Part shown: in pieces, positions 909 through 22,412 of the stretch
How positions within the stretch are numbered: the first letter of the stretch is position 1
Layout: each line of letters opens with the position of its first letter
Notes under the pieces: model-generated
What the model was told of the DNA's origin: nothing
Seen by the model: the letters and a program-made list of their open reading frames with translations, nothing else
Database searches by the model: none
Source of the DNA: a virus
Lineage: Duplodnaviria > Caudoviricetes
DNA: 25,690 nucleotides
Direction: 5' to 3' (one strand)
Virus record (IMG/VR): IMGVR_UViG_3300042507_002079
Span: 1 to 25,690 of that record
Position numbers and translations under genes: made by a program

Positions 909-2851
909 AACCTTGGGAACCACCCAAACCAACAGATGTCATTGACCTATGGAACAAGGCTGACCGCTATCTCCTAAAAGAACGACGCGACTACTGGATG
1001 AACGCGTCCTACAACAGCGGTCAACAATGGATTTGGTGGGATCAGACCCGCAACATTGTGCAAGAACTGGACTATGCCAACGACAACGAACGGTACACGC
1101 GTATCACCGTTGATAAGTTTGGGCCTCGTACAACAAACCTTTTATCTCGTATGACGCGCTCCCCACTTGTATGGGAGATCGAGCCATCAGGAACAGACGA
1201 CGCGTCAGCTCGTCGCCAACGTCTACAAGAACAACTTCTCCTATCGGAAGCCACAGAACAAGACTGGGCTGACATCCGTGAAGAACACCTTCTCCAAGTC
1301 CTATACGGTGGATCGGCAGCCGTATCTATTGAATGGGATCCTCAACTAGGCAAGATCGTTGCCACCGACCCCGTTACCGCCATCCCGATCCCCGCTGGTG
1401 GTGTACGCCTCACACCCCTCGGTATCAGCGAATTCTGTCTAGAACCAGGTTCACAGTCAGTTGATGACGCTCGCTACTGGATCAAATGTGTCGCTCTACC
1501 CCCTGAGCAGGTTAAAGAACGCTACGACCTTGACTTTGATCCCGTACCTGACGCTGAAGCATCATTGTCATCGCGCCACCGCACATTGCTGTCGCGTCGA
1601 CCACAAGGTCAACCACCCCGCTTAACCCTTGTCTACTGCTACTACGAACGCCCAACCAACCGTACCCCTGGTTGCGTCGTACACGTCGTAAACAACAAGC
1701 AGGTATACGCCTACGGCGACGGTCAAGGCTGGCCATTCCCATTCCAACGCCTCAACATCGCTATCGGTATCCAGCGCAAAATCCCTCGTACATGGGTCGG
1801 AAACACACTTCTTACCCCGGCACGAGACATCCAGTACGCCTACAACCGTGCGCGCTCAACCATCCTTGAACATATGCGTAAAGCAGCTAACGCTCGACTG
1901 ATGGTTCCCGCAGGATCAATTGAAGACTCCGACACCATTACGACCGACCCAGCCGACGTTCTTGAATACAACGCCGAACTGGGCGAACCGCATTGGCAGT
2001 CAGCACCCGAAGTCCCCCGCTGGATCAGTAACGAGGCTGCACAACTAGAAGCAGAGATGGACGACATCTTCTCCACCCACGCTGTTTCTCGCGGTCAAGC
2101 ACCTGGCGACCGCAACTCAGGACTTGCCCTATCAGTATTGGCTGAAAAGGACGACGGCCCACTAGCACCAATGGCACGAAACCAGTCTGCTGTTTGGGCG
2201 CGTATCGGTCAAATGACGTTGCAGTTGTACCGTGCCTACGCCCAGCAATCAGGCATGGTGCGATCACAAACGATCACTACCCAGCAAGGATCGACCGTCC
2301 AGTTTGAATGGACAGCCGAAGACATTGACGAAACCCCACAAGTCAAAGTCCCGCTAGACGCGACCGCACCACGATCCAAGATTGCAACCCAATCCGTCAT
2401 CACATCGCTGGCACAAACCTTCCCAGCAGCATTCCAAAACATTGACGGCCCAAGCCTGTCAAGACTGCTCGACCTTCCCGACCCCAAAGGTTTCATGGCA
2501 TCAGCAGATCCCGATGTTGCCAAAGCCGAATGGGAAAACGGACTACTCATGCAGGCCACCCCTGTTATGCCAGCCGACTTTGACGACCACGCCAAACATA
2601 TTGCCCAACACAACCGTGAGCGCAAATCCCCTGCATACGAGCTTGCAACACCCGATGTTCGACAAGCAATTGACGTTCACGTTCAAGCGCACCAAAAGCT
2701 GGCCGCTGACGAAGCAGCCGCACAACTCGCAGCACAGCAACAGATGCCGGGATCAGAAATGCTCCCGCAAGCCAATGAAGCACCTGGATCATTGGTTCCA
2801 CAAATACAAAACGGACAGCCAGGACAACCACAGGAGATGCCACCACAATGA
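905..2851 (+). CDS. Portal protein (podovirus/P22-like)
   Basis: 648 aa, between terminase and scaffold/capsid; portal-like segments (YNSGQQW, ARDIQYAYNRARS, SRGQAPGDRNSGLALSVLAE, DDHAKHIAQH) and Gln/Pro-rich tail. Confidence 0.88.
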   Translation: MKPWEPPKPTDVIDLWNKADRYLLKERRDYWMNASYNSGQQWIWWDQTRNIVQELDYANDNERYTRITVDKFGPRTTNLLSRMTRSPLVWEIEPSGTDDASARRQRLQEQLLLSEATEQDWADIREEHLLQVLYGGSAAVSIEWDPQLGKIVATDPVTAIPIPAGGVRLTPLGISEFCLEPGSQSVDDARYWIKCVALPPEQVKERYDLDFDPVPDAEASLSSRHRTLLSRRPQGQPPRLTLVYCYYERPTNRTPGCVVHVVNNKQVYAYGDGQGWPFPFQRLNIAIGIQRKIPRTWVGNTLLTPARDIQYAYNRARSTILEHMRKAANARLMVPAGSIEDSDTITTDPADVLEYNAELGEPHWQSAPEVPRWISNEAAQLEAEMDDIFSTHAVSRGQAPGDRNSGLALSVLAEKDDGPLAPMARNQSAVWARIGQMTLQLYRAYAQQSGMVRSQTITTQQGSTVQFEWTAEDIDETPQVKVPLDATAPRSKIATQSVITSLAQTFPAAFQNIDGPSLSRLLDLPDPKGFMASADPDVAKAEWENGLLMQATPVMPADFDDHAKHIAQHNRERKSPAYELATPDVRQAIDVHVQAHQKLAADEAAAQLAAQQQMPGSEMLPQANEAPGSLVPQIQNGQPGQPQEMPPQ

Positions 2852-3576
2852 CCGACTTTAACCCCGAAGGTGTAGTGGATACTGCGCCATTAGAAGGTTC
2901 AGAAGCCAGTTCCACCGATGTCAATTGGGAAGACAAATACCGATCAGAAGTAGCCGACCGTGTCAAAGAACGCGAACGCTACAAGCCGATTGCACAAACA
3001 TTCGCCAAAATGCATCCCGACGATGCCCGTGCAGTACAAGAGTTTGCTAACGCTTTCGCGTCAGGAGACACCGACACCGCAGTCCGATGGATGGTTGACA
3101 ACGCCAAGACCCTCGCCGGGGAACGCTTTGACAATTTCATCAGCCCCCAAGCACAAGCCGCCATTGGTCAGCAAGCAGTTCAAGACGGCCAGTCGGCAGG
3201 TCTGACCCCCGGTCAGGTTGAACAACTCGTCGAGCAACGGATGAACCAGTTCGCCCAAGCTCAGGTACAAACACAGTACGAACGACAAATTGAGGAGACG
3301 CTCGCACAACATGGACTTCAACCCGATACGCCGTTGGCGACAGCAGCAATCGTCGCAGCATCCCGCCGATCCGACCTTGATCTTTCCCTGGCAATACGCG
3401 AAATGGAAGATCAAGTTCTCGCTCAGGCAACGCAGATCGCAGCGAAGCGTTCAGAGGCAGGTAGCCAAATGGCGACACCCATCGTCAATGGGCAAGCCTC
3501 AACCACCTTCGCAGGACAGAACATGAGTCCTCGCGAACGGGCTATGGCTCGACTGCAACAGCACGGTCTTAGCTAG
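2848..3576 (+). CDS. Capsid scaffolding protein
   Basis: 242 aa, acidic N-terminus, helical Ala/Gln-rich body, basic C-terminal helix (SPRERAMARL); between portal and capsid; AGGAG RBS. Confidence 0.75.
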   Translation: MTDFNPEGVVDTAPLEGSEASSTDVNWEDKYRSEVADRVKERERYKPIAQTFAKMHPDDARAVQEFANAFASGDTDTAVRWMVDNAKTLAGERFDNFISPQAQAAIGQQAVQDGQSAGLTPGQVEQLVEQRMNQFAQAQVQTQYERQIEETLAQHGLQPDTPLATAAIVAASRRSDLDLSLAIREMEDQVLAQATQIAAKRSEAGSQMATPIVNGQASTTFAGQNMSPRERAMARLQQHGLS

Positions 3577-3580
3577 CCAT

Positions 3581-3611
3581 TTGACAAACAGGTGTTGTAG
3601 TGGTGTAGCAT
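3581..3611 (+). promoter_or_regulatory. Putative promoter for capsid operon
   Basis: TTGACA 3581-3586 and TAGCAT 3606-3611 (19-nt spacer, longer than optimal); the pre -10 sequence GTAGTGGTGTA is identical to that of the 11300-11327 promoter. Confidence 0.5.
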
Positions 3612-3621
3612 TTCGTCTGTA

Positions 3622-3723
3622 CCTCGGATGAGGCGCACCACATACAACCACTTAACATCGGAAGATGCAAGGCAACGCTGGATGGCGTGAACCATTGACA
3701 AGGTTGTGAACCCCCACATTCAC
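3622..3723 (+). promoter_or_regulatory. Structured 5' leader of major capsid gene with three GGA(U/A)-loop hairpins
   Basis: CCTC-GGAT-GAGG (3622-3633), CATC-GGAA-GATG (3656-3667), ACGCT-GGAT-GGCGT (3676-3689 approx.); ACAACC 3644-3649 can pair with GGTTGT 3702-3707 to enclose the last two. Confidence 0.65.
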
Positions 3724-3747
3724 CCACCCTCTTAAAGGAACCCCATC

Positions 3748-5016
3748 ATGCCCGCAACACTCTCAACAGTCGATGCCATTCTCAAGGACGACTACAAGGA
3801 ATATCTCGACAACCTCAACAATGCGAACTTCATTCTTTCGCAAGTTGAAACCCGCAAAGACACCGTCCAGGGTCGTATTGCCCGCCACGCCGTCCACCTC
3901 GGACGCTCAAGTGGTGTAGGCGCACGAGCCGAAAACGGAACCTTGCCAACTGCAGGAAACCAGGCTTTCGCAACAGTCCCGGTTCCCGTACGTTACGTTT
4001 ACGGACGCATCCAACTTTCAGGCCCAACCATCAAGCAGGCTGTCACCGACCGTGGCGCATTCATTGATGCTTTGGATGCTGAAATGGAAGGCATCAAGAA
4101 CGACGCAATGAAGGATGTCAACCGTCAGTTGTGGGGTACGTCAAACGGCGTTATCGCACAATGTGGTACGACTTCGTCAGCAACGACCGTTGTTCTCGCC
4201 TCAACCACAGGTTCGACCGCTCTCCGTCAGTTGTTCTTTGATGGTGGCATGGTTGTTGACATCGGAACCGTCGCATCCCCGACGACCGTCGCATCAGCTC
4301 GTACCATCACCTCGGTCGACGAAACCAACAAGACCATCGCCATCTCAGGTGCAGCAGTCACGACCACCTCGTCACACTTCGTTTTCCGTAGTGGTGCAGG
4401 TGGAGCGTCCAGCAACACAGGTCAGCCTGGCGACGGACAGGTCGAATTGACTGGTCTTCAGACCATCGTTGACGACACCGCAGTCCTTCACACAATCAAC
4501 CCTTCGTCACAGCCGAAGTGGAAGTCCTATGTGAACAGCAACTCAGGAACCAACCGTTCCATCACCGAAACCCTCATTACTGGCTCCATCATGAAGACCC
4601 TCACCAACTCAGGTAAGAAGCCTTCGTTGTTGGTTTCGGCTGAAGGTGTCAACTTGGCAATCAGCAACTTGTTGCTCTCATTGAAGCGCAACATGGAGCA
4701 GACCCAGCTCAAGGGTGGCTACGCAGGCATCCAGTTCTACAGCCCGTCTGTCAGCGGTAAGGGTGACGAGTCACCGACTGCCTTGTACGCAGACTTCGAC
4801 TGCCCGAACAACCGCCTGTACGGCATCAACCCCGACGTGTTGGTTTACCACCAGGTTGGCGACGGATTCCAGTTCATGGATCTTGACGGTGCAGTTATGA
4901 ACCGTAAGCCCGACGTGGATGCCTACGAAGCAACCTTGTACGCCTACGGCGAACTTGCTTGCAAGCAGCGCAACGCCCACTTCGTCATCAAGGACATCAC
5001 CGAGGTGAGCATCTGA
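3748..5016 (+). CDS. Major capsid protein (HK97 fold inferred)
   Basis: 422 aa after scaffold, strong AAAGGA RBS, biased codon usage; AILKDDY N-terminus, GRIQLSGPTI...AFIDALDAEMEG and YGELACKQRNAH C-terminus typical of podovirus-type capsids. Confidence 0.9.
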   Translation: MPATLSTVDAILKDDYKEYLDNLNNANFILSQVETRKDTVQGRIARHAVHLGRSSGVGARAENGTLPTAGNQAFATVPVPVRYVYGRIQLSGPTIKQAVTDRGAFIDALDAEMEGIKNDAMKDVNRQLWGTSNGVIAQCGTTSSATTVVLASTTGSTALRQLFFDGGMVVDIGTVASPTTVASARTITSVDETNKTIAISGAAVTTTSSHFVFRSGAGGASSNTGQPGDGQVELTGLQTIVDDTAVLHTINPSSQPKWKSYVNSNSGTNRSITETLITGSIMKTLTNSGKKPSLLVSAEGVNLAISNLLLSLKRNMEQTQLKGGYAGIQFYSPSVSGKGDESPTALYADFDCPNNRLYGINPDVLVYHQVGDGFQFMDLDGAVMNRKPDVDAYEATLYAYGELACKQRNAHFVIKDITEVSI

Positions 5017-5336
5017 TGGCAACTTCAGTCAGTATTACAACTGGCCCTGAAGTTCCGGGAAGCCGTAAGGAAGTCACTGGTGTTATCACTTTTGACTCGT
5101 CTTATGTAACTGGTGGCGAGGCTGTCACTTTGGCGCAGTTGGGTCTTTCACGACTTGACTACCTCATCGTGACCGCTGTCAACGGAAACATCCCTGCGTG
5201 GGACGGATCAACCTCGTCGCCTAAGATCAAGTTGTTTTGGGTGGACACCACCACAGACGGCGCACCGATGGCTGAAGTTGTGAGTACGACAGACGTTTCT
5301 TCAACGACTGCTCGCTTCTTGGCAATCGGCGCATAA
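5016..5336 (+). CDS. Small virion protein, probable head decoration/cement protein
   Basis: ATG overlaps capsid TGA (TGATG), GAGGTG RBS; 106 aa, beta-rich (ITFDSSYVTGGE); co-terminated with capsid. Confidence 0.7.
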   Translation: MATSVSITTGPEVPGSRKEVTGVITFDSSYVTGGEAVTLAQLGLSRLDYLIVTAVNGNIPAWDGSTSSPKIKLFWVDTTTDGAPMAEVVSTTDVSSTTARFLAIGA

Positions 5337-5360
5337 ACCAAATCCCCTAACAAACGAACG

Positions 5361-5392
5361 AGCCAGCCACTTTCGACGGTGGCTGGCTTTTT
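5361..5392 (+). terminator. Rho-independent terminator after capsid operon
   Basis: Perfect 10-bp stem AGCCAGCCAC/GTGGCTGGCT (5361-5370/5379-5388) followed by T-run. Confidence 0.9.
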
Positions 5393-5402
5393 CGTCTATA
5401 AT
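5373..5402 (+). promoter_or_regulatory. Putative promoter overlapping the terminator
   Basis: Perfect TATAAT at 5397-5402; TCGACG at 5373-5378 in the terminator loop (18-nt spacer). Confidence 0.5.
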
Positions 5403-9580: not shown

Positions 9581-9806
9581 AATAGCGGTCATCAACAACG
9601 CTAGGTATGTCCCGGTGTGCGGATACCAAACACTCCTAGACACCCTAGACAAACCCGACCAGGTTGACCTACAAGCAGCCATGTCCGACCCCAGCATCCA
9701 ATGCTCCGCAATCGAGCGAGCGTTACGCCAACGAGGCAACAGCATCACAGCGACGACACTACGCCGTCACCGACGAGGGGACTGTTCTTGTGGCAGGACT
9801 AGCTGA
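9555..9806 (+). CDS. Small HTH-like/Zn-binding protein
   Basis: AGGAG RBS; early Cys, helix pair AIERALRQRG..ITATTLRRH, ending HRRGDCSC; directly upstream of the phosphoesterase. Confidence 0.75.
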   Translation: MSKQSLLTEIAVINNARYVPVCGYQTLLDTLDKPDQVDLQAAMSDPSIQCSAIERALRQRGNSITATTLRRHRRGDCSCGRTS

Positions 9807-10935
9807 AGACATCAACCGCCTAGGCGAAACCAAACGGCTGTCGCTGGGTCGCATCGCAGACCTACTTGACCGCAACGGGATTGACTTAGACGAAGTCGGC
9901 AAGATTCAGCGCGTCTCGCTGTACCAGTCGCTCACCAAGAACGACGAAGGCGAAGCCGAACTACACGACCTGACCGCAATCCAGTTCTCGCCCAAATGGG
10001 CAGAAGGCCCCGAATGGCCAGTCATCCAGCCAGGCCCACCAGTCAAACTCCCAGCCCGCAAACCCGCCAAAACCCTCTCAGGGTGGCGTAATTGTGCCAT
10101 CCTTCCCGATATGCAGATCGGCTACTACAGAGGCGTAGACGGGCAACTACAACCCACACACGACGAACAAGCGATCAAGGTCGCATTAGACATCGTCAAA
10201 GATGCCAACCCTGTACTCGTCGTCCTAGTCGGAGACAACCTAGACCTGCCCGAAATGTCCAAATACCGTCTGACTGCCCCATACCAGCAGACCACCCAAG
10301 CCACCATTGACCGTGCCACCACACTCTGCTTTGAAATCCGTGAAGCAGCACCCGACGCACGGATCGTATGGCTCGCAGGCAACCACGAAGAACGACTCCC
10401 CCGGTACTTGATTGACAACGCGAGCGCAGCGTTTGGTCTTCGACGAGGATCATCCCCCGAATCATGGCCAGTCATGTCAGTCCCGTTCCTATGCCGACTA
10501 GACGAATCCAACGTGGAGTATCTACCTGGATACCCTGCCAGCCACATTTGGATCACAGAGAATCTCAAAGTGATACACGGCGACAAGGTTGCTAGCGGTG
10601 GCAGTACCGCACACAAGTACCTTGCCACCCAAAAGGTCAGCGTCATCTACGGACATATCCACCGTCGAGAATGGGCAGAACGCACGAGAGACGACCACGA
10701 CGGCCCATCCACAATCCTCGCAGCGTCCCCAGGTTGCCTGGCTCGTATTGACGGCGCAGTCCCCAGTACCAAAGGTGGTGTAGACCTAGACGGCAGACCC
10801 CTCGTCCAGCACGAAGACTGGCAACAAGGATTAGCCATCATCCCGTTTGACCCTGAGACAAACAAGTTTTGTTACGAACAGATCGCTATTCATGACGGAT
10901 GGGCGATGTGGCGTGGTAAGAATTACGGGCAATGA
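9790..10935 (+). CDS. Calcineurin-like metallophosphoesterase
   Basis: Motifs PDMQIG, GDNLD, GNHE, HGD, GHIH; GTG start at 9790 with GAGGGG RBS preferred to the TTG at 9664. Confidence 0.9.
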   Translation: MAGLAEDINRLGETKRLSLGRIADLLDRNGIDLDEVGKIQRVSLYQSLTKNDEGEAELHDLTAIQFSPKWAEGPEWPVIQPGPPVKLPARKPAKTLSGWRNCAILPDMQIGYYRGVDGQLQPTHDEQAIKVALDIVKDANPVLVVLVGDNLDLPEMSKYRLTAPYQQTTQATIDRATTLCFEIREAAPDARIVWLAGNHEERLPRYLIDNASAAFGLRRGSSPESWPVMSVPFLCRLDESNVEYLPGYPASHIWITENLKVIHGDKVASGGSTAHKYLATQKVSVIYGHIHRREWAERTRDDHDGPSTILAASPGCLARIDGAVPSTKGGVDLDGRPLVQHEDWQQGLAIIPFDPETNKFCYEQIAIHDGWAMWRGKNYGQ

Positions 10936-15325: not shown

Positions 15326-16488
15326 TGGCTCCTAAGATCGGCCCTCGTGGCATCACGATTCAAGACGTGCGGCGCGTAGCCACAAATGGCCTACCCAAAG
15401 ACACCGGGGAATCGCAATACATTTACGCCCCACCTTCTCGATTGACCCCAGCCTACAACCCTGAACTTTTGGCGGCTCTTATGGCGGGTCAAGCGCAACC
15501 TAGTTACGGCGAAAAATACGGTGGGTTCCCAACGCGAGAAATGTTGAACGACGCAGCTTTGGGTTACGCCTTAAACATTCGCGACATAGGCGATTACGCA
15601 GGATATAAAGCTGCAGAACTGAATGCCCCATTGGAGCGCGAACTTACTAGCGTTTATGATTCTGCTGATGGATACGACGCGTTTGCAGCTGAAATTGCTA
15701 AAGGCAGAGCGAAACAAAGCAACATCCGAAGCGCATTTGGTGAAAAACAACCATCAGCAATTATGGATTTAGCAGGACAACAACGAACCAAAGCCGAAGC
15801 AGATCGCCAAGCTGCCCTAGCCAAATACAGGTCTGATGCTGAATCTGCGTACACAAGCGATTTCAACACCCAAGTTGATCCTTACCAACAGATCGCAGAA
15901 ACTATTTACGGTACGCCAGTCTCACAGCTCGCTCGACAAGCACTCATAACCCAATACGGCGTTGACCCCAACGTGGCGCGCGCAACCTTCACCGAACAAA
16001 CAGACCTTGACTACGCCAAACTTCTACGAGACTCAGAACTTGCCGCGCAAGGTATTGACTTCTCGATGAGCGAAGGCGAAATGATCTACAACTCACAGGG
16101 GCCTGAAGCATACAGGGTTTACCAAGAACAAAAAACTTACGAAGCGATGTATGGCACGCCAGCAGAACAAGCCAAAGCCCAACAAGATTTGATTGACTCA
16201 CAATACGCCCCAGTTGACGCAGAAATTTTGGATGAATGGGGCATCACGCCAAAAGAAGTAACCGGGGCAGATGCCGAAACAGTTCGTGCGCTGTTTCTAG
16301 ATCCCGAATTCTTGTCAACATGGATTAGGCCGTCCGTTGAACTTCTTGATGCCAGTAATGGGGTTACTTCGGGTGCTGATATTGCAGGTCAACAAGCACA
16401 AGCATATTTGAAAGTTAACCCTAACGATTACTTGAGGGCTAGAACACTTGCAGCAATCATCGCAGAGTTTGATTTCTTGAGTCGCTGA
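15325..16488 (+). CDS. Probable internal virion protein 3
   Basis: 387 aa, helical Ala/Gln-rich, TGATG-coupled on both sides. Confidence 0.6.
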   Translation: MAPKIGPRGITIQDVRRVATNGLPKDTGESQYIYAPPSRLTPAYNPELLAALMAGQAQPSYGEKYGGFPTREMLNDAALGYALNIRDIGDYAGYKAAELNAPLERELTSVYDSADGYDAFAAEIAKGRAKQSNIRSAFGEKQPSAIMDLAGQQRTKAEADRQAALAKYRSDAESAYTSDFNTQVDPYQQIAETIYGTPVSQLARQALITQYGVDPNVARATFTEQTDLDYAKLLRDSELAAQGIDFSMSEGEMIYNSQGPEAYRVYQEQKTYEAMYGTPAEQAKAQQDLIDSQYAPVDAEILDEWGITPKEVTGADAETVRALFLDPEFLSTWIRPSVELLDASNGVTSGADIAGQQAQAYLKVNPNDYLRARTLAAIIAEFDFLSR

Positions 16489-19400
16489 TGTCTGCTGAAG
16501 ACTTCATTAATCGAGTTAAACAACGTAGGTTAAATAAGCCGACCTCTGACGCGCCACCGACTATACCGCCATACCCGACATACCCGCCATATTTAACTTT
16601 ACCGCCAACGACAACCCCGCCAGGCAAAACAAACTTTATTGCCGATTATGTACCAACAGGAAATGTACCGCAATCGTCCGATAGTGGCGGTGGCGGTGGC
16701 GGTGGCTTTTGGGGCAATCTTTTTTCTATTCCAGTTAGTTCAACAAAAGCAGTTTTTAGTGGGATCGGCCAACTTCCGCAATTAGGAAAAGACATTGTAA
16801 TGACTGGCGTCGGTACTGCGGAAGAAGCATACGGCGGAATAACTCAAACTTTAATTCCCTTTTACGACTACACCACACGCGCAGATAAACGACGAAAACA
16901 AGCCGAAGAAATGGGTCTTAAAGGCTACGAGGCACTCAATTACGAATTAGCTCACACATATCCGTTTGTAACAAAGTTTGCTGACTCAGTACAAACACTT
17001 GGTGGCAATGTTGCCGAACTCGTACCACTTGCAAAAATTGATGTTGGCGAACCGGGAGTTAACTACAAAAACGCTTTCAACAGAGGCGACTTTGGCGAAA
17101 TGCTTGTTGGTGACGTTGGAACAGCAATCACTCTTGGTCGTCTCAGCGGGATAGGTAACGTCGGCGTTCGCGCAGGAGCCAAAGTTAATTCAGCAGGCGC
17201 ACCTCGACTAGGTTCAACTATCTCAGCAGCGTCACGATTTGTTGAAGAACCAATCGGTTCAACAGCACGCGGAACAGCCCGTGTGGGCAACCTGGCAGCA
17301 GACCGACTGTCCCGACTCTCAACTTTGGGCAACACCGCAACTGCTCGCTTGACAGGTTTCGCTGATCGAGCTGGACGAATCGCTGAAGCACCACGCCCAC
17401 TACGCCAAACACTTGATGAGGCTGTGGGTGCGCGCCGATTAAAGTTTGAGGGACGTTTAACAGATCTAATTGACGAAGAAACAAGATTAACTGACGCAAT
17501 AGAACGACTTTCCCCTGACGACCAGGCGCGAATTAAACTTGACGAAGAACTTACAAAAGTCATAGAAGCCAAAGAAAAAGCCTTGACTGGTACTGGCCGA
17601 CCGAAAATGTTACGCCAAGAAATTAGAGCGCAACAACGAGCAACCGAAGCAACGCGTACTAAATGGGTGACCGCAATCAACCGTTGGACTAACGAAGGTT
17701 CTGTCCCCGAATCTGTCCGTCAATTGGATGAATCAGCACAAGCAGCGCGCGTACGCCAGCAAGAAGAAATGGCAAAAGGCGACCCGCAAACCGCGCAATT
17801 CAACGATGACCAAGCAACGTTCTACGAAGAAGCAGCGAACCTGAAACGATCCGACGTTGACGGTCGACTCAATCCTAAGAACTGGGACAATGTTGAAAAG
17901 CAGACGGTATTCAGTAGTGCCGTGCTGATTATGACCAAAATCAAAGAAGAAATAGTTCGCGCATACGACAGCAAAGTCAGAGAAGGTTTAACGCACGAAC
18001 AAGCCGTTGACTGGATTGCAAGGAACATCACACCACCTGAACTGCTACCTGAAATAGCTGCTCAGGGTTACGCTTGGACACCACAAGCCATTGACCGTGT
18101 CATCCGATTCTCAAAGGGTCAACTAGACGCATTTGACAGCATGAACATTGAAGGTGCTGCGCGCCTCATCAACGCGTTTAGCGAATGGTTCAGTAGCCAG
18201 GCGATGCAAGGTATCGGTCGGGTAACCGGGGCTTTGCCGTTCACCTACAAATTCAACTTGCCTGACCCAATGAATATGGTGCGTCAGTTGAAAGATCGAC
18301 TAAAACTCAAGACAGCAGTCTATGAAATTTTAGATGAAGCAATGGCGTATGTATTGCGTCGCGACCACATGGATTTTGTCACCGAACAAAAGATTGACCT
18401 TGATAATCCAACGGGACTGTTTGAGAAATTTGCAGAAAAACGCCCTGATAGCGAACAGTACGCCATTGCCTACAAAGCATTGACCGAAGCATTTGATGTA
18501 CTTGTAGATGACCCGCAGACCTCAATGTTCATGCAGAACAAGATGATCTATCCCGCTGCAATGCGACCTGTGATGTTGGCAAGAGAACGCTTAACGCAAG
18601 CAGCTCGCGCCGAAGACGTAACTTTTATGGCCGACGAGTTGGCGCAACTTGCTGTTCAAAACCAAGACTTAATCCCCGGCAGAACCTTGAAGTCAATTGC
18701 TACTGCTATCAAGTTGGCTTTAGGTGAGCAGACTAAATACGACGTGCGAACCTGGGTTCGTGTTCAAGCAACTCTCAACCGTTTAGTCGCTGAAGCACAA
18801 AAGGCTCAAGCCGAATACCAAGGTGCGGGAGCAAAACTTAGTGGTGGCATTGACAGTACAATGGCTCGACTTCAACAAATTGAACAGTTTGCTGTCGCTG
18901 CTAACGCAATGATTGACCAAGTTATTGCTAACCCTGACATTGTTTTCCCTGACCTTGCTAACGGTTCACCACGACTTGTCGCAGCAAGACAAGCGGAGCA
19001 AGCAAACCTGTCTCGCATTGACGCGATCCCCGACGAGATCGCTCAGGTTGATGCCGAGATTAAAGCCGAGATTGACCGTCAGAGAACCGCTAACGCCTAT
19101 CTGCAACAGGAGTTGGACAATACTCAGGTCAGCCTTGACGAAGCTCGTACTCGCGCTACTGAAACAGCCGATGCCGAAGCCACGGTGCGCCAGCAGTTAG
19201 ACCAGGAGCAGGCGTACATTGATGCATACAACAAACTGACCGAAGAAGAACTTGCAGCGTTACAAACAGACTTTGAGACAGCACTTCGCATCCACGGCCA
19301 GTACGCAAGTGGTGACAAGTTTGTTAGCAAAGGCACAGCGCAAGCAGTTAAGCGTCGCCTAGTCGAAGAAGCCACACAACGCCTTGCTGTCGCCCAAGGT

Positions 19401-22400
19401 CTTGTAGATAGTTTGATGCCTTCACGGTTGCGTCGCTCGCGCACAATGACTATCGGTTTGGCAACCGATCCGAACGCAATGTCGTTTATGCAGGAAGACT
19501 TCCGTGCGCCATTTGAAAGTGCCGTCTACCAGGCTATTGGTGATCCAAAACTAGCTAAGAAGGCGTACAACGATTTTGTTAACTCTCGTACCGTCATGGA
19601 TGAAGGTGTTGCCGTTGACCAACTCAGCATGGAAACAGGTCGTGACTTCGCATCAGATAGCGATTTCATGGCAGAACTTGGTCGCGCCTGGGCTGAACAA
19701 TGGCAAGCCGAAAAAGACTTAGGTCGCGCCAAACAAAAAGGCGTAGAGGCTATTCGCAAAGAACTTGCTGCCGAAAATCAGGCCAACATTGACCAGGCTA
19801 TTGAAGCATCCACAGTTACACAGCAGAACCTGCCGTGGATTGAGCGCATGATCGAATTAGATGATCGCGCAACGCTTGCAGAAGCCACTCGCACCGTTGA
19901 AGGTCTACGCCGTGATCTAGCCAAAGCCGAACAAGCAGCACAAAAAGCACAAGCCGACCTTAACCGTCTAGCGGCCAAAGTAGCCAAACTTACCGACCAA
20001 GCACGACCCAAGGTTCCGAACGAACTACTGACACGCCGTAGCAAATTAGAAAAAGAATCCGCCACTACAAAGAAAGCAACTCGCCGTCTAGCCGGGGTCG
20101 TAGAACGCGCCCAAACAGCAGAACCTAAGACGATAGCCAGCCTTGTTAAGAGCGCACGCCTCGCGCGACTACAAGGTGTCGGCAAACTAAACGCTGACGG
20201 ATCAGCACAAATGCTCCCAGGTCTTGCTGGCAAATTAGATGCCGAACAACAAACGCTTCTAGTCAAGCAAGCCGAACTAGACGCAAAACTTGCCGATGTT
20301 CGACGCAGAGCAGCCGAGCAAGACGCGTTAGAACAACAAACACAGACGATCCAAGGCGAAGCACAAGCACTATCCGACCTACAAGGCCAGCCAATGGGGC
20401 CACAGTTACTTGCCCAAAGCGGAGCAGCACGACTCAATGTTGAAGGCGCAAGCCCTATTTACTACCCGGCAGGCGAAACATCGTCCGTTACACCACAGGC
20501 TCGTATTGAAACTCGACTACGAAGCGAAGCAGCTGGTGCTGAACGGCAATCAGCGACCGAAGGTGTCAAGACAACCAACGTCATGGCAATGGACTCAGGC
20601 AAATTTGCTGACCGCGTCAATGAGATCCTGGGTCAATTCGCGCGCAACGTCGTAATTCAAAGACTTATTCAGAACCGTGAGTTTGTTACTGACGTGTCTT
20701 ACCATTTTACTGATGAACAACTAGCACAATTTGATATTGACGCTCGTCGCAAACTTGGCAACCAGCGCACAAACTTAAACACTTACGAATTTGAACAGCT
20801 TGTCAAAAAAGAAGTCGGCAATACAATCCTACAAAAGTTGAAAGAAAAAGGTTTAGAGCCAATATCTAAAGTACAAATGCCCGACCCCGAAGATATTTAT
20901 ACTGGTCGTTCTGCGCTGGATACATTCAAAGACATCGTCGAAGGTAAAGACATTGACGCAACAACGCTTGTCATGCCTATCGGTATGCGTGACAGAGTCG
21001 CATCAAGTTTCGTAGCCAAGTCGGACGCTGCAATCCCTGACGGCGTAAAGAAGTTGTTCACCAAAATTGGCAAAGTAACATCGGGTTGGAAGTCGGTCAT
21101 CTTGCCGATCTCAGTTCGCTGGCAAGTAGGCGACTACATGGGCAACATCATCAACGCTTGGGTGCGCGGAGACATTGACCCCAAAACAATGATGGAAATG
21201 ATGAAGTTGGTTGACGAACTCATCCGCGAAGACACCGGGACTGGCAAATTCAAGGCTCGCACCGGGGGCGCAACCAACCGCACATTCAATAACCCCGTAT
21301 TGCAAGCACTTATCGGTGAAGGTATCCAAGGTCGGTCACTACGCCTTGACGACATCCGTGACATCTTAGCTGCTAACAAGGGAGCAGTACCTATCGGTGA
21401 TGTCAATGCCAGGTTTGGTCGAGACTTCCGCAAGAAAGCGTTCAACTTCAACGAGTACATGAACACGCAACAAAAACTTGCTGTAGCAATGGTTAAGTTG
21501 CAAGAAGCGTTAGACAAACAAGGTCGCACAATGGCAGACATTGACCCTGTCACATTGCACAACGACCCCCAACTACAAGCCGCAGTAACCGAAGCAGTCC
21601 AATTCGCCAACGAAACCCTCGGATCGTTCAGCGAAATGACACCGTGGGAACGAAACGTCGTCCGACAAATATTTCCATTTTGGTCATGGATCAAATTCAT
21701 CAACACCGCAGCAGCCAAACTATTACTAGATAGTCCTGACCGAGTCTTGTTCTACTCTCACCTTGGCTCGATGACAATGGATCCCGACTCCGAAGGTCTT
21801 TACAGTTGGCTACAAAACAAGACACCCATCGGTGGCCTGTTGTTTGACCTGTCATTTACTAACCCATACACCGACGCAATCCTGTTCCAAAAAAACCCAT
21901 TTGAAGCAGGATTTGAACAAACAACATCATTTTCACCAGCCATAACTTTTACTTTAAGCGCGCTTGGAGAAACCGCCTACTACTTTACGGGACGCAAATT
22001 CCCACCTTTAATCGCTGGATCCCGCCCCAGTTACCTTGAAGGTAGCCCTACAGCATCAAGCGCATCCTTTGGCGACTTTGTTGGTGGTGTTGCCTACCAA
22101 GGGCTAAAATCATTTGGCGGCCCAGCCCGAAACCTATTAGAACTTGGGCCTGCTGACACAAAAATTCCGTTCACCGATGTAGCCGTTGGGCCTGGCAAAC
22201 GGTTCGGTCAAGGATCACTCCGCACCGAGGGACGATACGCAGAACTTGGACTGTCTCCAAACACGGCTCGACTATCGTCATTCCTACGCACATTCGGTCT
22301 ACCAGGGCCTATCATCAGCATGGAAGAAGCCAAACGGCAGGCAGAAGAACAACGAATTGCTGACGAGAAAGCCCGCCTACGCAAAATACAGGAGAGAATT

Positions 22401-22412
22401 AACGCTGGATGA
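16488..22412 (+). CDS. Giant internal virion/DNA-ejection protein
   Basis: 1974 aa, Cys-free, long coiled coils, C-terminal ERNVVRQIFPFWSWIKF motif typical of large podovirus internal proteins; last of four coupled genes. Confidence 0.75.
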   Translation: MSAEDFINRVKQRRLNKPTSDAPPTIPPYPTYPPYLTLPPTTTPPGKTNFIADYVPTGNVPQSSDSGGGGGGGFWGNLFSIPVSSTKAVFSGIGQLPQLGKDIVMTGVGTAEEAYGGITQTLIPFYDYTTRADKRRKQAEEMGLKGYEALNYELAHTYPFVTKFADSVQTLGGNVAELVPLAKIDVGEPGVNYKNAFNRGDFGEMLVGDVGTAITLGRLSGIGNVGVRAGAKVNSAGAPRLGSTISAASRFVEEPIGSTARGTARVGNLAADRLSRLSTLGNTATARLTGFADRAGRIAEAPRPLRQTLDEAVGARRLKFEGRLTDLIDEETRLTDAIERLSPDDQARIKLDEELTKVIEAKEKALTGTGRPKMLRQEIRAQQRATEATRTKWVTAINRWTNEGSVPESVRQLDESAQAARVRQQEEMAKGDPQTAQFNDDQATFYEEAANLKRSDVDGRLNPKNWDNVEKQTVFSSAVLIMTKIKEEIVRAYDSKVREGLTHEQAVDWIARNITPPELLPEIAAQGYAWTPQAIDRVIRFSKGQLDAFDSMNIEGAARLINAFSEWFSSQAMQGIGRVTGALPFTYKFNLPDPMNMVRQLKDRLKLKTAVYEILDEAMAYVLRRDHMDFVTEQKIDLDNPTGLFEKFAEKRPDSEQYAIAYKALTEAFDVLVDDPQTSMFMQNKMIYPAAMRPVMLARERLTQAARAEDVTFMADELAQLAVQNQDLIPGRTLKSIATAIKLALGEQTKYDVRTWVRVQATLNRLVAEAQKAQAEYQGAGAKLSGGIDSTMARLQQIEQFAVAANAMIDQVIANPDIVFPDLANGSPRLVAARQAEQANLSRIDAIPDEIAQVDAEIKAEIDRQRTANAYLQQELDNTQVSLDEARTRATETADAEATVRQQLDQEQAYIDAYNKLTEEELAALQTDFETALRIHGQYASGDKFVSKGTAQAVKRRLVEEATQRLAVAQGLVDSLMPSRLRRSRTMTIGLATDPNAMSFMQEDFRAPFESAVYQAIGDPKLAKKAYNDFVNSRTVMDEGVAVDQLSMETGRDFASDSDFMAELGRAWAEQWQAEKDLGRAKQKGVEAIRKELAAENQANIDQAIEASTVTQQNLPWIERMIELDDRATLAEATRTVEGLRRDLAKAEQAAQKAQADLNRLAAKVAKLTDQARPKVPNELLTRRSKLEKESATTKKATRRLAGVVERAQTAEPKTIASLVKSARLARLQGVGKLNADGSAQMLPGLAGKLDAEQQTLLVKQAELDAKLADVRRRAAEQDALEQQTQTIQGEAQALSDLQGQPMGPQLLAQSGAARLNVEGASPIYYPAGETSSVTPQARIETRLRSEAAGAERQSATEGVKTTNVMAMDSGKFADRVNEILGQFARNVVIQRLIQNREFVTDVSYHFTDEQLAQFDIDARRKLGNQRTNLNTYEFEQLVKKEVGNTILQKLKEKGLEPISKVQMPDPEDIYTGRSALDTFKDIVEGKDIDATTLVMPIGMRDRVASSFVAKSDAAIPDGVKKLFTKIGKVTSGWKSVILPISVRWQVGDYMGNIINAWVRGDIDPKTMMEMMKLVDELIREDTGTGKFKARTGGATNRTFNNPVLQALIGEGIQGRSLRLDDIRDILAANKGAVPIGDVNARFGRDFRKKAFNFNEYMNTQQKLAVAMVKLQEALDKQGRTMADIDPVTLHNDPQLQAAVTEAVQFANETLGSFSEMTPWERNVVRQIFPFWSWIKFINTAAAKLLLDSPDRVLFYSHLGSMTMDPDSEGLYSWLQNKTPIGGLLFDLSFTNPYTDAILFQKNPFEAGFEQTTSFSPAITFTLSALGETAYYFTGRKFPPLIAGSRPSYLEGSPTASSASFGDFVGGVAYQGLKSFGGPARNLLELGPADTKIPFTDVAVGPGKRFGQGSLRTEGRYAELGLSPNTARLSSFLRTFGLPGPIISMEEAKRQAEEQRIADEKARLRKIQERINAG

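Follow-up and report, generated by a model that had tools for sequence, protein, structure and literature searches.

The 171-nt gap 5′ of the major capsid protein gene of an uncultured, podovirus-like freshwater phage (Caudoviricetes) carries a promoter-like site and three hairpins tipped by GGA. The phage DNA, IMGVR_UViG_3300042507_002079, is 25,690 nt long, corresponds to the structural module, and was analyzed in its entirety (hereafter, the window). Relatives keep the GGA loops on stems that covary, and similar arrays were found before unrelated head genes. Comparison of these sequences led us to propose, tentatively, that the leader is an RNA operator with several binding sites for a head protein of the phage, probably the free scaffold.

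Results

The portal gene (905-2851; phrog_156, P22-like portal) is followed by a gene on the plus strand (2848..3576) coding for a 242-aa protein predicted to be all-helical. This protein was labeled as a putative scaffolding protein by synteny, i.e., by its location in the portal-capsid gap; it had no match in Pfam or PHROG and its gene is kept in 22 aligned relatives. The major capsid protein gene (3748..5016, plus strand; 422 aa) matched phrog_14242 (E 3e-87), and the nearest capsids of cultured phages, about 30% identical, belong to phages of Arthrobacter, Microbacterium, and Cellulosimicrobium. Next to it, a conserved gene for a 106-aa protein (5016..5336, plus strand), of which a relative's copy had no Pfam match, likely shares the capsid transcript. 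An intrinsic-terminator-like hairpin with a 12-bp stem and a T run (5360..5399, plus strand) would end this transcript. The terminator-like hairpin region (5360-5402) overlaps a promoter-like TCGACG-18-TATAAT that would serve the next genes. Elsewhere in the window, a metallophosphoesterase gene (9664-10935) sits amid tail and lysis genes, and an ORF of 1974 aa (16488-22412) had no Pfam or PHROG match. The host is very likely an actinobacterium because relatives of the phage encode WhiB and the nearest cultured capsids are those of actinophages. WhiB is encoded by a complete 40.8-kb relative (E 2e-15), and homologues were found in three further complete relatives. The one match in a genome collection (L081) is a 2.3-kb contig placed in a Pirellulales bin that has no WhiB, where it was probably mis-binned. 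A 79-kb record (G006; loci L466-L469) contains two phage gene sets and seems to be two genomes joined together; host DNA was not evident in it.

The initial annotation, made from the nucleotide sequence of the window, described three hairpins with differing stems and one loop class in the leader of the capsid gene, and all three were located, on the plus strand like the remaining elements. The first hairpin, P1 (3618..3637), includes CCTC-GGAT-GAGG (3622-3633) with the loop GGAU at 3626-3629, and its stem can be lengthened to 8 bp if one mismatch is allowed. P3 (3656..3667) is CATC-GGAA-GATG with the loop GGAA at 3660-3663, and P4 (3675..3688) is ACGCT-GGAT-GGCGT with the loop GGAU at 3680-3683. 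Both would be enclosed in a junction by the closing stem P2 (3644..3707), in which ACAACC (3644-3649) pairs with GGTTGT (3702-3707). The last hairpin, P5 (3706..3723), consists of GTGAA and TTCAC around a variable C/A-rich loop and overlaps the 3′ arm of P2. As had been annotated, it lies ahead of the Shine-Dalgarno-like (SD) AAAGGA (3734-3739), which forms with a G-poor spacer the segment 3724..3739. P5-like hairpins, as judged by eye, are present in relatives. When hairpins were counted as GGAN tetraloops on stems of at least 4 bp, dinucleotide shuffling of the 171-nt gap, repeated 20,000 times, never produced three and produced two in 30 cases. The whole plus strand of the window has only 10 such hairpins.

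Conservation was assessed with the results of three capsid-based scans (the best 80 of 134, 157, and 162 loci), which added up to 205 loci, 200 of them with enough upstream DNA. There were 76 distinct leaders at 82-100% capsid identity, and the addition of L266 (58%) brought the set to 77; clusters at 80% identity defined 24 lineages. In the 77 leaders, 200 of 271 GGA sequences sit at the tip of a stem with 4 bp or more, compared with 79 of 1260 within the coding region of the capsid gene, and the proportions for the 24 lineages are 60 of 88 and 24 of 390, respectively. Such hairpins number three in 44 leaders, four in 3, two in 26, and one in 4. Pairs 2 to 6 of P1 are formed in 24, 21, 21, 21, and 21 of the 24 lineages, with many pair types, and pairs 2 to 5 of P3 in 19, 22, 19, and 18 of 22 lineages. 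The exchanges in these two stems include C-G, G-C, A-U, and U-A. Pairing of P1 and P3 exceeded that in column shuffles, at most 5 of 5000 of which matched it at pairs 2-5; the shuffles ignore phylogeny, and the P1, P3, and P4 sites were chosen manually, with the exclusion of three that have no GGA. The GGA of P4 is kept in 23 of the 24 lineages, in tri- to hexaloops, and since its loop ranges from 3 to 6 nt, fewer lineages (13-15 of 23) form the pairs when a tetraloop register is imposed. The ACAUA-like linker located downstream of P1 (3640..3644, plus strand) is also conserved, its loose pattern being matched in 21 of 24 lineages. Among 184 stem positions, G-U occurs 13 times and A-C 4 times, which favors the sense strand as the one that folds. 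The refuting conditions named in the initial annotation were thus not encountered on the sequence level: related leaders do keep GGA loops on covarying stems, and a promoter-like site lies upstream of the hairpins.

Loop size (3-6 nt) and copy number (three to four) vary across relatives. P1 is duplicated in two loci (L067 and L074), L266 has four GGAG loops, and nine of the 77 leaders have one non-GGA loop (AGAA, AGCA, or GGU-type). The last GGA loop is located 57-87 nt upstream of the capsid start codon throughout the family, and G accounts for 6% of positions -35 to -13 in the 24 lineages. Some relatives have an SD without the GGA that is present in that of the window. Profile scans for relatives at 45-58% capsid identity mostly returned the same family, the informative loci being L266/L267, L330, L591, and L592. 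Of these, L330 (49% capsid identity) has no leader, its scaffold looking related by eye, and GGA arrays are absent from L591 and L592. The cultured relatives at about 30% identity have gaps of 8-36 nt and no such leader. In a complete relative (G001), the capsid leader is the sole cluster of such hairpins, with none before the scaffold gene.

A promoter-like site, TTGACA-19 nt-TAGCAT (3581..3611, plus strand), was identified at a position from which transcription would start near 3617-3618. A TTGACA...TAnnnT site is located 5′ of the hairpins across the family leaders. The TTGACA box matches in at least five of six positions in 64 of the 76 distinct leaders, where the spacer is 19 nt (33 leaders), 16 nt (27), or 17 nt (4). 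The length of this spacer is bimodal and separates two clades (19 nt and 16 nt); a scan for consensus promoters with 16-18 nt spacers did not call the 3581..3611 site. Because it sits downstream of a conserved promoter-like site, the leader would be transcribed, with a start at about 3617. In five of 23 lineages, a perfect 14-bp palindrome, possibly an operator, is found directly before the -10 box. Bases 5′ of the presumed start (3600-3641 region) can pair with 3636-3641, and in the predicted read-through transcript P1 refolds and loses its GGA tetraloop (probability 0.0 vs 0.97).

The ACAACC/GGTTGT multibranch junction that had been proposed in the initial annotation is only part of the picture. 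The pairing is kept in relatives, as 86.2% of the cells are paired in 19 aligned leaders in comparison with 17.6-43.4% when the alignment is slid, and two-sided changes occur at four of six pairs (just 5 cells in all). However, P2 and P5 share bases 3706-3707 and are mutually exclusive, so that the junction is an alternative to the 3706-3723 hairpin. The predicted energies of the P2 and P5 conformers (-27.0 and -27.8 kcal/mol) are within 0.8 kcal/mol, and the predicted ensemble probabilities in the promoter-started RNA are 0.09 for P2, 0.84 for P5, and 0.17 for P4. Folding energy is unremarkable, with a z of -1.39 in the window and a median z of -0.67 over the 24 lineages. The signal of the leader is its conservation, not its stability. 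A conserved anti-SD sequence was looked for and not found. Predicted pairing of the SD hardly differs between the P2 and P5 conformers, so a ribosome-access switch is unsupported.

Arrays beyond this family were looked for with a protein-blind scan that used three CGGAYG-type motifs, for which 121 of about 350 loci were listed; within the matches of such a pattern scan, loop uniformity holds by construction. Among the GGAY matches listed, 15 of 121 loci had at least three stems of at least 4 bp, and these comprised 12 before scaffold or capsid genes and 3 repeats. Six of the 12, always among the matches listed, belong to the capsid family of the window, five precede scaffold-type genes of phrog_784/DUF6651 (four classified and one, L357, assigned by its identical N-terminus), and one precedes a phrog_283 capsid. 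A further locus with two counted stems (L403) precedes an HK97-type capsid. Examination of 14 cultured phages showed that 12 have a DUF6651 scaffold with 1-4 GGA hairpins within 170 nt of its start, over a cultured-phage background of 0-0.58 GGA hairpins per 170 nt; the two with other scaffolds have no GGA hairpins there. The 12 include HK639, Caulobacter phage DMCA, and phages of Pseudomonas, Acinetobacter, and Rhizobium, and in five cultured phages two further GGA hairpins are found before the capsid gene. In DUF6651 phages (L452, L453, L454, L455, L458, L465), the array 5′ of the scaffold gene usually begins directly behind a hairpin that resembles an intrinsic terminator.

A scan for GCAY was meant as a negative control and found head-gene arrays, and TCAY was used as the control instead. 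Among the GCAY matches listed of about 1100, 21 of 119 loci have three stems, and 20 of them are followed by a gene. With four near-duplicates not included, the 16 classified loci among those listed precede 13 phrog_9857 scaffolds, 2 phrog_267 capsids, and 1 unclassified gene. The first hairpin of these 21 arrays (within L472-L589) often doubles as a terminator-like stem. Among the TCAY matches listed of about 210, 22 of 118 loci have three stems, 18 of them with repeated stems; two following ORFs had no PHROG match, and no head-gene array was found among the matches listed. Five loci (L654, L694, L697, L702, L711) have triple GCC-UCAC-GGC-type hairpins with partly differing stems, which are not before classified head genes and may be another repeated RNA motif. 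The GGAY and GCAY arrays have in common a spacing that depends on the gene that follows. In cultured phages, the nearest GGA is 9-34 nt from scaffold starts vs 44-95 nt from capsid starts, three of these offsets having been re-based on annotated starts, and in the GCAY set the match ends 11-20 nt from scaffold starts vs 51-53 nt from capsid starts. By sequence criteria, the capsid leader belongs to a cross-phylum class of head-gene hairpin arrays.

Discussion

The fixed loop, the free stems, and the tolerance in loop size and copy number suggest that the leader is a protein site. The middle base of the loop is fixed within lineages (9 of 77 leaders with one exception), which suits a phage-encoded reader, and the restriction to head genes together with the spacing rule also favors one. 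The scaffold is proposed as this reader because it is a head protein with a regulatory precedent, phage P22. In this mechanism, transcription from about 3617 would yield the leader RNA, whose GGA loops would be bound by a head protein of the phage, probably scaffold that is not yet assembled, so that the production of capsid protein keeps pace with head assembly. The P2 junction would be favored over P5 once P3 and P4 are bound. Capsid synthesis would more likely be stimulated, or its mRNA protected, than the ribosome site be blocked, because the last loop is 57-87 nt from the start codon and the spacer is poor in G. In other phages, where the hairpins abut the scaffold start, repression would be expected.

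Some of the evidence counts against the scaffold as the reader. GGAY loops are common to scaffold families without detectable homology; in hhalign comparisons the scaffold of the family had a probability of 0.2% with DUF6651 and 5.5% with the GCAY scaffolds. Besides, the family's own scaffold gene has no array, while one is present in DUF6651 and phrog_9857 phages. The structure model of the scaffold is all-helical (pLDDT 70.8, pTM 0.35) and showed no known RNA-binding fold; a fold search matched only a member of the same family. A broader hypothesis is that G-N-A-Y hairpin arrays are a cross-phylum operator code, each read by the phage's own scaffold, where the loop letter co-varies with the scaffold lineage and distance sets the sign (repression of scaffold, boost of capsid). 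We consider this extension doubtful. If true, the coat-to-scaffold stoichiometry would be self-adjusting, and the phage of the window would carry a capsid-only, promoter-led arm of the system.

The alternative that fares best, although unlikely, is that a host factor other than CsrA, such as a ribosome or S1-type protein, RNA polymerase, an RNase, or a chaperone, reads the G-N-A tips, and that the leader is a translation enhancer or mRNA stabilizer for abundant virion proteins. The same loops are found 5′ of scaffold and capsid genes that are unrelated to each other, in phages whose hosts are gamma- and alphaproteobacteria and Actinobacteria, and in view of the lack of homology between the scaffolds this is the simpler explanation. 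G-N-A is common to GGAY, GCAY, and the AGAA/AGCA variants, P1 begins at the presumed 5′ end, and the spacer is G-poor. However, a general reader of G-N-A would not fix the middle base in each lineage, to which only 9 of 77 leaders have an exception, and the capsid leader is the only such cluster in the complete relative G001.

The consensus for CsrA is ANGGA. The initial annotation had brought up CsrA/RsmA recognition of GGA in hairpin loops and had remarked that the consensus A is missing. In this reading, host CsrA/RsmA would bind the three GGA loops, plus the GGA of the SD, and control capsid translation. The remark was correct for most loops, as A occupies position -2 in only 9 of 68 loops and position -1 in 5 of 68, and CsrA is improbable as the reader. 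GGA triloops are common, none of five complete relatives encodes a CsrA (no PF02599 match), the last loop is 57-87 nt from the start, some relatives lack GGA in the SD, and the sister GCAY arrays have no GGA at all. A weak additional argument is the existence of arrays in a Caulobacter phage, a genus without a row in the CsrA table of PMC4682653, in the accessible part of that source. On the other side, GGA is exposed in hairpin loops here (60 of 88 on stems of at least 4 bp), AGGAU or ACGGAU is present in a few of them, and GGA in loops is the core of Csr recognition according to the accessible part of PMC9037510. The same part of PMC4682653 includes a CsrA encoded by Acidimicrobium ferrooxidans, so an acidimicrobiial host could have one.

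It is known that 5′ hairpins protect mRNA, and short stems need good loops. The GGA loops could then be mere favorable caps and the leader a structural stabilizer without a reader. This seems quite improbable given that GGAU, GGAC, and GGAG are neither GNRA nor UNCG loops, C-A is frequent as the closing pair (17 of 88), the folding z-scores are weak, and the loop of P5, a hairpin of the same leader, is free to vary. Also very improbable are a small decoy RNA that is released, loops that mimic the SD, or a ligand-sensing tandem-hairpin riboswitch. P2 with two GGAY hairpins does resemble the layout of TwoAYGGAY, and P2/P5 alternatives exist. Nonetheless, the decoy suggested in the initial annotation found no support, as a scan from 3300 to the capsid start called no terminator and there is no terminator-like site between the element and the capsid gene. 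The SD-mimic loops, its other suggestion, are unsupported since four-base loops would pair poorly with rRNA. The array is always 5′ of head genes and had no Rfam match. A tandem-hairpin riboswitch of the guanidine-II/mini-ykkC type was rejected for lack of an Rfam match, of ACGR loops, and of a metabolic downstream gene. Least probable of all is that the hairpins act as DNA, as a cruciform or single-stranded G-N-A loops, in transcription or packaging: DNA loops of the d(GNA) type have high stability (PMC3201870, accessible part) and C-GGA-G triloops exist in relatives, but the 13:4 bias of G-U over A-C speaks against it, as does a location that is constant with respect to start codons and always behind the promoter.

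The preferred reading, a leader read by a phage head protein, can be compared with several known systems. Wyckoff and Casjens reportedly described, in 1985, the post-transcriptional autoregulation of the phage P22 scaffolding protein. The likeness lies in the control of head-protein supply, proposed here to be exerted by unassembled scaffold, and in the P22-like portal of the phage. Unlike in P22, the element precedes the capsid gene, comes with a promoter-like site of its own, and repeats a defined loop, and binding by the scaffold is putative. In the R17/MS2 coat operators and the lambda boxB-N pair, a phage protein recognizes the loop of a small hairpin, and the loop variants are specific to lineages. 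The arrays differ from these in having three or four copies, in being located on head-gene mRNAs of dsDNA phages, and in extending across host phyla; the boxB-N hairpin is covered in the accessible part of PMC12550061. CsrA/RsmA target leaders and the CsrB/RsmY/RsmZ decoys are also multivalent, with several loop GGAs on variable stems. In contrast to them, the loops here are Y-GGA-Y-R, mostly without the upstream A, the sites are far from the capsid SD, there is no phage CsrA, a GCAY sister class exists, and the element is a cis leader of head genes. TwoAYGGAY (RF01731) has two GGAY-loop hairpins on a common basal stem according to the accessible part of bioRxiv 10.64898/2026.09.22.753630, where it consists of multicopy chromosomal elements. 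The capsid leader has a fixed position before a phage gene, no AY prefix (A at -2 in 9 of 68), an extra 5′ hairpin, and no match to that family at E<=10.

Neither the window nor the 301-nt region matched Rfam 15 at gathering or E<=10, and 12 related loci searched at E<=1 yielded a single chance snoRNA match (E 0.45). This outcome, together with loops conserved on covarying stems, agrees with the initial view of an uncatalogued structured leader. The leader would work like a multivalent translational operator, and we do not assign it to a catalogued family. Literature searches, whose coverage was outside subscription papers, found no description of such a leader. We regard three points as new, namely, the multibranch form that is promoter-led and found at the capsid gene only, the sister class with GCAY loops, and the rule on spacing. 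The balance of capsid and scaffold supply in dsDNA phages is known for very few cases, and with a short RNA signal that is repeated in the leaders of head genes and extends from E. coli phage HK639 to actinophages of freshwater, this question becomes directly testable in cultured phages and laboratory strains. The array can also help, as a marker in the sequence, to annotate scaffold genes whose function is unknown, e.g., DUF6651, and the arrays could supply orthogonal RNA-protein switches.

Structured leaders before head genes have precedents. The accessible part of PMC10690425 includes the GP20-a and GP20-b motifs as well as unnamed candidate RNAs of viruses, located 5′ of scaffold (GP20) and major capsid genes. 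The capsid leader resembles them in location and differs in its lack of an Rfam match, and one of the 8,495 unnamed models of that work, as far as its accessible part goes, may possibly cover this leader family already. A distinct conserved hairpin, with GGGCC...GGTAC arms, was observed before the scaffold gene of the cultured relatives Shocker, Adat, Jasmine, and DS1 (L082, 1936-2070; L083, 2061-2124; L084, 2062-2124; L085, 1964-2029).
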